From NCBI GenBank assembly GCA_047602405.1, contig JASGHJ010000002.1, forward strand, positions 1,216,001 through 1,280,000: 64,000 nucleotides of DNA, written 5' to 3'. The stretch comes from Anaeromyxobacteraceae bacterium. GTDB lineage: Bacteria > Myxococcota > Myxococcia > Myxococcales > Anaeromyxobacteraceae. The stretch's first letter is position 1. Each line of letters begins with the position of its first letter. This document shows positions 42,690 through 55,813 of this stretch, piece after piece. The translations under genes and the position numbers were made by a program. The notes below the pieces were generated by a model, which was not told where the DNA came from, searched no databases, and was given only the letters and a program-made list of their open reading frames with translations.

Positions 42690-42741
42690 GCGCCAAACTA
42701 TACCCGCAGCGTGTGTCGGGGGGAGCCGTTAGAAGGAGGGC

Positions 42742-54235: not shown

Positions 54236-54586
54236 ATGAGCACGCCGAACATCGCCGCCCCCGCGGGCGTCGGCAGCATCGCCGTCATCTTCACCTCCAT
54301 CCGCTCGCCGGTCACCGAAGACGGCGGTCCTCCCGGCTACGCCCAGACCGCAGAGGAGATGGTGCGGATGGCGGCGCAGCAACCTGGCTACCTCGGCATG
54401 GAGAGCGTCCGCGGCCCCGACGGCTTCGGCATCACGGTCTCGTACTGGCGAGACGAAGCGTCGATCCGCGCGTGGAAGGCCGTCGCCGACCACCAGGCCG
54501 CGCAGCGGGCCGGCCGCGAGCGCTGGTACCGCGCCTACCGCACGCGCGTCTGCCGCATCGAGCGGGAGTACGGGTTCGAGAGGTAG
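54236..54586 (+). CDS. Antibiotic biosynthesis monooxygenase family protein
   Basis: AVIFTS, QPGYLGMES, GITVSYW, AQRAGRERWY. Confidence 0.88.
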   Translation: MSTPNIAAPAGVGSIAVIFTSIRSPVTEDGGPPGYAQTAEEMVRMAAQQPGYLGMESVRGPDGFGITVSYWRDEASIRAWKAVADHQAAQRAGRERWYRAYRTRVCRIEREYGFER

Positions 54587-55646
54587 GGGAGGGCGGCGCG
54601 CCGTACACCGCCTCGGGCTCGTGCGCGACGGGGTGCTTCCGGAACTGCTGCATCCAGTCCTTGCCGAAGCAGTGCTGCGCCCAGAGCATGTTGTGGTGCC
54701 GGCAGAGCAGCCGGAGGTTGTCGAGCGTCGTCAGCCCGCCGAGCGCGACCGGCTTGATGTGGTCGACCTCGAGCTGCCGGGTGGACGCGCAGATCCCGTC
54801 CTTGTCGGTCGGCCACTGGCAGCAGCCCCTGTCGCGCTTCCAGACCGCGTCGCGGAGCGGCTTCGGGACGTAGCGGGGGTTGCTGGAGATGGTGGGCCGG
54901 CCTCTCTTGCGCGGCTTGTCCGTCCCGCCGCGCGCCTTCGCCTGGTGCTTCAGGAGCAGGTCGAGGGCCGCCTCGAGAACGAACGCGCCGGTCGCCGTCG
55001 GGTACGCGTTCGACATGCCGTCGCGGGCGCGGTCGAGCTTTTCGATGAACTCCTTCGTGACCGTGAAGTGAATTCGGCGGAGGTCGGCCGTGATGGGCCG
55101 CGTGAATGACGACGCCTCAATGCCAGCAAGTACGGGGGGTTGGCCGGGAAAATTCGAGCTACCTACCGGTAGAAAACTCAGCTCATCGGCCGCGGCGGTC
55201 ACCACCTTCTCGCCCCGCGCCGCAGGAGTGACGAGGCTGATGAGCTCCCGCCGCGGCGGAGCCTCTAGCGGTTTGACCTCAGCCGCAACCACGGCCGCTT
55301 CCTGCCGAGACTTCCCGAAGAAGCGCGGCAAGACCTCGCGGCAGTTGTCGGCCGTGATCACCTTCGCGAGTTCGCTCACCGACATGAGGCAGAGCCGGCC
55401 GTCGCGCAGCGGCTCAACAATCGCGGGGTGCATGCGGATGAGCCGTGCGGCCGTCTTCCGGTAGTACGCAGCGCCATTCGAGAGTCCGAGTTCACGCTTC
55501 AGGGACTCGAACAGGCTCCGATACCCCATCTCCTCCCACTGCCTCCGCTCGTCGAAGTCCGCGAGCTCGACGAGGAAGTCGGCCATCGAGTGCTGCTCCT
55601 TCGAGAGGAGCACCTTCAGACGTTCCGTGCGGGCGCGTGCGTTCAT
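54432..55646 (-). CDS. HNH endonuclease with DUF222-like N-terminal region
   Basis: GYRSLF..RELGLS.GAAYYR, LRDGRL; C-terminal VWKRDRGCCQW..C..LEVDHIKPVALGGLTTLDNLRLLCRHHN; more A/T-ending codons than neighbours. Confidence 0.85.
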   Translation of the reverse strand: MNARARTERLKVLLSKEQHSMADFLVELADFDERRQWEEMGYRSLFESLKRELGLSNGAAYYRKTAARLIRMHPAIVEPLRDGRLCLMSVSELAKVITADNCREVLPRFFGKSRQEAAVVAAEVKPLEAPPRRELISLVTPAARGEKVVTAAADELSFLPVGSSNFPGQPPVLAGIEASSFTRPITADLRRIHFTVTKEFIEKLDRARDGMSNAYPTATGAFVLEAALDLLLKHQAKARGGTDKPRKRGRPTISSNPRYVPKPLRDAVWKRDRGCCQWPTDKDGICASTRQLEVDHIKPVALGGLTTLDNLRLLCRHHNMLWAQHCFGKDWMQQFRKHPVAHEPEAVYGAPPSPTSRTRTPARCGRRACGRRGTSARGRPAARPGGRRRPSTRGSTLRLASTRP

Positions 55647-55668
55647 GGACCCAGCGTACCAGTCGGCA

Positions 55669-55684
55669 CTGACAGCGCGTTCAG
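55669..55684. promoter_or_regulatory. Candidate Myxococcus-type LexA (SOS) box upstream of the HNH gene
   Basis: CTGACAGCGCGTTCAG within the inverted repeat GGCACTGA-N8-TCAGTGCC, 10 nt upstream of the -10 TACGCT. Confidence 0.6.
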
Positions 55685-55813
55685 TGCCCCGGCTCGGGTG
55701 GAGGTCCAGACCGAGTAGATCGCTGACCCTCCTGACCGGTCGGCCCAACCTCCGCCACCTCGCGCGACCGAACGCTCACCGCGCGCGGCGGCAGCCTCTG
55801 GTAGCCTCCCCCC

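Follow-up and report, generated by a model that had tools for sequence, protein, structure and literature searches.

A probably damage-induced HNH nuclease gene of Anaeromyxobacteraceae with overlapping PafBC-type and LexA-type promoter sequences, and its recombining multicopy family

Dispersed repeats encoding DUF222-HNH proteins, known as 13E12 or REP13E12, have been described in mycobacteria. According to the accessible parts of the respective reports, 13E12 genes of Mycobacterium tuberculosis are bound by LexA and/or lie under a RecA-independent promoter (PMC3381160), five putative HNH genes are induced in a RecA-dependent manner (PMC8151990), and the repeats are listed among repetitive elements (PMC10589994), occur as inversion breakpoints (PMC13157036) and are gene-conversion hotspots without a defined function (PMC13061034).

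Two regulators of the DNA damage response are relevant to the present locus. For LexA of Myxococcus xanthus, the available portion of PMC9705874 confirms the consensus CTRHAMRYBYGTTCAGS, names recA2, lexA and pafBC-cyaA as direct targets and states that LexA directly represses only five genes; it also reports that the protein failed to bind a recN box differing at two positions and that, among 51 genes affected indirectly by LexA, 24 carry a PafBC sequence. The mycobacterial PafBC motif is given as tGTCgg(N10)tA(N3)T in the part of PMC8635444 that was available, and a WYL pair is listed as LexA-repressed in the corresponding part of PMC12288472.

The HNH gene and its protein

We analysed a 64,000-nucleotide stretch of DNA, the window, from an Anaeromyxobacteraceae genome (G000). 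The window contains an HNH ORF of 404 codons (Table 1), located between genes for an antibiotic-biosynthesis monooxygenase and a class I/II aminotransferase, with uvrC nearby and only 167 nt of space upstream. The closest relative (G010) carries a syntenic orthologue. In both genomes, the last ∼55 codons are antisense to the adjoining monooxygenase gene; the family-like protein stops near codon 349, the tail being outside the family's conserved part.

A preliminary description of this DNA had reported a protein of roughly 400 residues with a helical N-terminus and an intact C-terminal HNH/Zn motif, and each of these features was recovered. According to Pfam, an HNH domain (PF01844) passes the cut-off at residues 286–317 (E = 2.2e-7). 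When the protein was aligned with 108 of 120 listed homologues (n = 109), D295, H296, C286 and C315 were present in all 109 proteins, C276 and H318 in 108 each, N319 in 106 and N310 in 98. Named relatives came from Anaeromyxobacter(aceae), other Myxococcales or Deltaproteobacteria. The tmRNA tag of the source genome agrees with that of Anaeromyxobacter. A match to DUF222 (PF02720) at residues 21–104 fell below the gathering threshold (17.2 versus 24.4 bits), and DUF222 was matched at E ≤ 0.01 in 15 of the 109 family members.

The AlphaFold model of the protein had a pLDDT of 82.5, with residues 1–124 all-helical. Foldseek found nothing at E ≤ 0.001 with either of the two models of the protein; below significance, nine of the ten highest-ranked entries for the N-terminal model were ParB/Spo0J/Noc DNA-binding domains. 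In the source genome, a longer HNH protein with a sub-threshold HTH_ParB match aligned to the same N-terminal region (probability 95.5). By our reading of the model, residues 188–238 are ribbon-helix-helix-like and may mediate dimerization.

Table 1. Features of the HNH locus and of the uvrB promoter, in positions of the window
Feature	Position	Strand	Basis or remark
HNH ORF (ATG at 55646, stop at 54432)	54432..55646	-	family-like part, codons 1–349; tail antisense over monooxygenase gene
Helical N-terminal domain, aa 1–124	55275..55646	-	AlphaFold model; weak ParB/Spo0J/Noc fold resemblance, weak DUF222 similarity
Disordered AT-rich linker, aa 137–182 (predicted)	55101..55238	-	AlphaFold model and sequence
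Extended stretch and two helices, aa 188–238	54933..55085	-	AlphaFold model; ribbon-helix-helix-like on inspection
Zn-HNH module (C276, C286, D295, H296, N310, C315, H318, N319)	54690..54821	-	Pfam and alignment
-10 element TACGCT, 6 nt before ATG (leaderless geometry)	55653..55658	-	sequence
PafBC-type -26 element TGTCAG, 10 nt upstream of -10	55669..55674	-	motif match
LexA-type operator (predicted), CTGAACGCGCTGTCAG on coding strand, overlapping -26 element	55669..55685	.	consensus match
PafBC-type motif TGTCGG-N10-TAGAAG, 6 nt before uvrB GTG start	42714..42735 (to 42744 with start)	+	motif scan

Promoter sequences of the HNH gene

The leaderless geometry proposed in the preliminary description, an ATG preceded at 6 nt by TACGCT and lacking a Shine-Dalgarno (SD) sequence, was confirmed: TACGCT lies at 55658–55653 and no GGAG, GAGG or AGGA occurs within 34 nt upstream of the ATG. 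Across the family, a -10-like hexamer is found 5–7 nt ahead of the ATG in 62 of 73 homologue upstream regions and an SD sequence in four of them. The 111 loci gave these 73 as distinct regions in which the ATG could be located, the remainder being duplicates, short or ATG-less. A longer start, TTG at 55748, was disfavoured as the homologues begin at the ATG.

The 15-of-17 match to the M. xanthus LexA consensus claimed for this promoter was reproduced (CTGACAGCGCGTTCAGT, 55669–55685, plus strand). None of 3000 random intergenic 59-mers came within two mismatches of the consensus. By contrast, eight of the ten family loci of the source genome did so (2, 2, 1, 2, 2, 3, 2, 2, 1 and 4 mismatches; the ten loci represent 14 matches after collapsing), as did the promoters of lexA (2), recA (2) and an operon with a second recA (1). 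The best matches near uvrB, uvrC and pafBC had five mismatches each, in agreement with the earlier remark that no such box precedes uvrB or uvrC. The lexA promoters of the source genome and of five of five relatives retain the form CTGAACGC-N5-CAG, and the HNH gene has the same form. At the level of sequence, the LexA box is genuine and exceeds chance expectation. Among the 73 homologue upstream regions, only two had two or fewer mismatches.

The preliminary description had drawn attention to an inverted repeat, GGCACTGA-N8-TCAGTGCC, at 55665–55688. The repeat is exact but not rare: the window holds 11 inverted repeats of the 8-8-8 type. Moreover, the syntenic orthologue keeps its CTGAAC..TGTCAG core but not the outer arms. 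Together, the 11 repeats and the unconserved arms rule out the 8-bp inverted repeat as the signal.

On the coding strand, the promoter reads ctgaacgcgc-TGTCAG-N10-TACGCT-N6-ATG. The 3' half of the LexA box thus doubles as the -26 element of a PafBC-type promoter, an overlap that had previously been missed. In the source genome, TGTC[AG]G-N10-TAnnnT occurred 17 times at a spacer of 10 as against zero to two times at spacers of 6–9 and 11–15; the 17 matches correspond to ∼11 independent promoters once six IS copies and a duplicated ssb are collapsed. All 23 genus genomes searched contained the motif, with 106 matches in total versus four for a reversed control. A looser scan of the source genome added, with Pfam assignments, uvrB of this window, an imuA-like gene of the RecA family, a 3'-5' exonuclease and a Y1 transposase, and also radA, recN, recJ and a uvrD-like helicase, which, like ssb, were recognised by eye from their N-termini; uvrC was absent from the scan results.

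The source genome also encodes PafB/PafC orthologues, in the form of a tandem WYL pair whose best PDB matches were PafBC (E = 2.8e-24 and 6.2e-30). As read from the alignment, the pair keeps the R-x-FERDK helix with its DNA-reading arginines. HTH_PafC was found in 80 of 121 phylum genomes.

Both promoter elements, LexA-type and PafBC-type, are kept in the G010 orthologue. Because the same bases form a PafBC-type promoter, also present before uvrB, the HNH gene is probably under dual damage control by PafBC and LexA rather than under LexA alone. The overlapping PafBC and LexA sequence matches make it likely that the protein is made only after DNA damage. The idea of PafBC-type control is not wholly new, since the accessible part of PMC9705874 provides an M. 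xanthus precedent.

Several further promoters share these sequences. A six-copy IS (G000:C1:600290 and five others) with a TnpB-type ORF of 645 aa repeats the leaderless promoter with overlapping CTGAAC/TGTCAG, and five loci encode further multicopy proteins of ∼600–665 aa behind TGTCAG promoters; one of these has an HNH and a weak HTH_ParB match, the others being without a Pfam family above cut-off. Most paralogues in this genome have a GTGAACCCATC...ATGGACANGTTCAC inverted motif upstream of the -10 and the LexA box. The promoter class that is most frequent in the family has a conserved inverted motif, GCGTGCGTTT...GAAANCGCGTG, possibly autoregulatory, ahead of the -10. Besides pafBC, the source genome has a second tandem WYL pair (G000:C1:232518-234517). 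The ssb promoter region occurs twice near the start of contig C1 (G000:C1:5847 and C1:20445), as a duplication or an assembly artefact. Finally, lexA of the source genome (C2:1749046-1749061) is frameshifted in a run of six C, as compared with seven in G010, and the LexA domain is intact in five of five relatives. This frameshift may be an assembly error; given that several paralogues are also broken, assembly errors are possible in this genome.

Range, recombination and movement of the family

The family yielded 2–31 matches per genome in all 24 genus relatives, corresponding to up to ∼30 copies, many of which are broken. A large share of the copies in relatives lie within elements that have terminal inverted repeats and 9–11 bp target duplications but no transposase gene. 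Adjacency to the aminotransferase gene was limited to two of 18 genomes, those of the source and G010; at the other 16 aminotransferase loci, none of the neighbours of the HNH locus lay within 1.5 kb. The family is thus multicopy and the locus is not syntenic across the genus. None of the genomes compared had the flanks of the window copy joined in an empty site. At E ≤ 1e-20, the family was found in none of 16 genomes of other bacterial families. Its profile detected nine of 61 phylum genomes and, at E ≤ 1e-30, 4296 clusters; look-alike clusters were mostly from Myxococcota and Bdellovibrionota. A metagenome scan gave one close locus, and the contigs of four runs contained only relatives, one of them spanning the HNH gene.

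The codon usage of the gene had been described as foreign-looking. Its GC3 (0.883) is indeed below that of seven neighbours (0.93–0.99), but values of 0.87–0.90 in six paralogues and 0.86–0.92 in 20 copies from genome G021 show that low GC3 is family-wide. Among 3994 ORFs of a crude set, the gene stands at about the 23rd percentile. The family-wide low GC3, together with a syntenic orthologue with conserved ends, rules out a recent foreign insertion: the HNH gene belongs to an old family and is resident. The checks originally set for a stand-alone SOS cassette came out in its favour as regards the LexA-type box, which is present at paralogues, lexA and recA, and the multicopy, non-syntenic state of the gene, and no transposase gene accompanies the window copy; its control, however, is probably dual and the copy is resident.

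Comparison of the source genome with G010 revealed a mosaic gene. Whereas the immediate neighbours are 92–95% identical and hardly any change is seen in the promoter core or the first 40 codons, identity between the two HNH proteins is 97% over residues 1–40, 58% over 41–130 (family median 62%), 78% over 186–245, ∼54% over 256–310 (family median 51%) and 80% over 311–335. Residues 41–130 are the best conserved block of the family, yet the two proteins are no closer there than average members. Four-fold sites differ at 44 of 95 positions in codons 41–310 versus 32 of 231 in the aminotransferase gene (Fisher p = 2e-9). Because silent sites have diverged as well, recombinational replacement accounts for these data better than selection acting alone. 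Between the two genomes, recombination appears to have swapped the HTH-like and HNH modules, with the reading frame kept. No close donor for the swapped modules was found in the source genome, where paralogues are 25–34% identical.

Similar patterns were seen in other genomes. Nine family copies are syntenic between G015 and G007 (13 and 11 loci fetched, respectively). In the eight scored pairs, the genes are 65–91% identical, with one partner broken, and 14 of 16 flanks reach an identity of 91% or more; for three of the eight, the nearest gene is a non-syntenic paralogue. Ten G021 genes (93–99% identical) gave p = 0.001 in a recombination test. Of three G015/G007 copies tested, one was missing from the other genome, where the empty site showed neither a duplication nor a clean junction. 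As most copies hold their position between G015 and G007, movement of the family is slow.

In G021, the family gene lies in elements of 1.8–2.0 kb whose imperfect inverted ends begin with CT[CG]A[CGT]GATTC[AG]TCAC (20 of 24 matches fetched). Thirteen of these elements have both ends: three are flanked by exact 9-bp duplications, about five more by near-matches recognised by eye, and five of the 13 touch REP-like palindromes. Internally deleted derivatives retain both ends. The end motif occurred in 20 of 92 family genomes (control, 0). Outside G021 and G051, ends faced the family gene in 23 of 29 evaluable cases by our own count; an end counted as evaluable if its inward sequence reached 350 nt or more, which left out three ends, and one duplicate was removed. 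Target duplications of 9–11 bp flank two further elements (loci L304 and L306), and inverted flanks were detected at 20 of 86 loci at E ≤ 1e-5 in partly redundant records. No terminal inverted repeats were found around the window copy or its G010 orthologue.

The same ends occur with other contents. G051 harbours gene-less 776-bp foldback units with these ends and ∼10–12 bp duplications, and a 2174-bp form with an IS110-like recombinase ORF (by eye) inserted at position 275; none of 15 inspected loci with G051 units had a family gene. One end of the same type (L278:1651-2178) faces another passenger, a small DUF559-like endonuclease ORF (by eye). The simplest reading is that the family gene is a passenger on a non-autonomous element. 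The resident window copy has lost or never had the inverted ends. Relatives thus reveal a route of spread, namely inverted-repeat elements with target duplications; no transposase with these ends was found in a search of the PF01609 family.

Candidate function and relation to known systems

We give roughly even credence to the reading that the gene encodes an intact Zn-HNH nuclease expressed from a predicted PafBC-activated and LexA-released leaderless promoter, and that it is likely a selfish, recombination-shuffled element rather than part of host repair or defence. In this scheme, DNA damage would generate single-stranded DNA, and PafBC would recruit RNA polymerase to the -26/-10 promoter. 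RecA-triggered cleavage of LexA would clear the operator covering the -26 element, making the promoter an AND gate. The ParB-like helical domain would bind DNA, and the HNH module, to judge from its residues, would nick or cut it. Recombination between family copies, consistent with the observed mosaicism, would swap DNA-binding and nuclease modules in place, and the nuclease itself may provoke this swapping. New sites would be gained via a non-autonomous inverted-repeat element, of the kind whose ends and duplications are present in relatives, moved by a host transposase. The rarity of the promoter layout in the family (LexA in two of 73 regions, PafBC in 14 of 73) argues against this reading, as do the failure of M. 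xanthus LexA at the recN box, the frameshifted lexA of the source genome, the stable position of most copies between G015 and G007, the lack of a close donor for the swapped modules and the sub-significant ParB-like fold match.

It is unlikely, but worth weighing, that the family instead benefits the host as a defence or abortive nuclease, a damage-induced panel with shuffled DNA-binding that cuts phage DNA or kills damaged cells. Module swapping resembles specificity shuffling, the catalytic residues are conserved, and McrA-type restriction nucleases were among the top fold matches, although these were not significant. Several paralogues of the source genome end in -AA like the tmRNA tag ANEPMALAA, which suggests fast turnover. 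Nevertheless, PADLOC returned no anti-phage model match for six proteins, leaving the defence option raised in the preliminary description without support; the neighbours (uvrC, monooxygenase and aminotransferase) do not constitute a defence island; and copy number varies from 2 to 31 matches per genome, with many copies broken.

An improbable alternative is that the family protein itself mobilises the inverted-repeat elements, binding and cutting their ends and producing 9–11 bp duplications without a DDE transposase. We attach the same low weight to its fuller version, according to which a transposase-less mobile element has no gene other than that of the family; its damage-induced HTH-RHH-HNH protein would recognise the element's own inverted ends, move them with 9–11 bp duplications and swap modules between copies to change specificity, the window copy being a settled, end-less one. 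In line with self-mobilisation, all but one of 36 end-motif matches in G021 are, by coordinates, at family elements, and the deleted derivatives hold both ends. Searching one transposase family, PF01609, identified none in G021 and, in G000 and G013, only loci without these ends; no autonomous element bearing the ends was present among 48 further loci. However, the combination of inverted ends and 9-bp duplications is the hallmark of DDE transposition, the G051 units have the same ends and no gene, one end faces a different small nuclease, and the protein has no recognisable strand-transfer domain. The transposase search, moreover, covered a single family.

Still less probable is a LexA-only SOS cassette, as first described, in which the TGTCAG spacing would be incidental. 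The box statistics and the lexA footprint fit such control, and most paralogues of the source genome have a LexA box over the -10 and an SD sequence, with TGTCAG absent. By contrast, the orthologue keeps the exact PafBC geometry, as do 14 of 73 homologue promoters, eight of these 14 with 5–6 LexA mismatches, and enrichment of the PafBC-type motif is spacer-specific. Least probable of all is a domesticated repair nuclease of the damage regulon (e.g., for stalled-fork processing) retained beside uvrC: its promoter type is common to uvrB and other repair genes, its frame survives the module swaps, and the available supplement of PMC9705874 lists a UV-induced M. xanthus HNH gene, possibly unrelated to the family, but the window gene adjoins the aminotransferase in only two of 18 genomes, the profile finds the family in only nine of 61 phylum genomes, and the gene interior diverges far faster than repair genes.

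Overall, the HNH gene is real, intact and probably damage-induced, and belongs to a recombining, multicopy family that appears to spread slowly on transposase-less elements. The 13E12-type HNH repeats are without known function, and the best-studied ones reside in a host that is slow and hazardous. A parallel family in culturable soil bacteria, subject to the same two damage regulators, would open the target and purpose of such repeats to experiment. From the promoter, a candidate PafBC regulon can also be defined across Anaeromyxobacter, which bears on what drives LexA-independent damage induction in myxobacteria. Both the module swapping and the inverted-repeat elements without a transposase suggest that the nuclease may be reprogrammable and may have a route of spread of its own. 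No description of the family, its ends or its module swapping emerged from a literature search that included one supplement, subscription papers being mostly out of reach.

Compared with described systems, the similarity to IscB/OMEGA and McrA-type nucleases lies in the HNH module. With respect to IscB/OMEGA, the score against NF040563 (22.7 versus a cut-off of 175) reflects the HNH only, and the protein has no RuvC and a different N-terminus. Non-autonomous IS derivatives with passenger genes are known as MITE, MIC or tIS. The elements in relatives resemble these in their inverted ends, 9–11 bp duplications, lack of a transposase and deleted derivatives, but their passenger is consistently one nuclease family, and the window copy is without such ends. 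As in the M. xanthus LexA regulon, boxes occur at lexA and recA, and the HNH box matches that consensus at 15 of 17 positions; in the source genome, however, boxes concentrate on HNH paralogues and an IS, with none before pafBC. The promoters share a common motif with the PafBC (sigma adaptation) promoters of Actinobacteria, as the regulators share the PafB/PafC R-x-FERDK helix, but are found in Myxococcota and prefer TGTCAG. Finally, the family resembles 13E12/REP13E12 in being dispersed and multicopy, in its helical N-terminus and C-terminal HNH, in gene conversion, and in having members with predicted LexA and/or RecA-independent control. It differs in phylum and LexA motif, falls below the DUF222 cut-off, has proteins of ∼350 aa with ParB-like and ribbon-helix-helix-like parts, and has relatives in inverted-repeat elements with 9–11 bp duplications. 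The present family nevertheless probably works like the mycobacterial 13E12/DUF222-HNH repeats.
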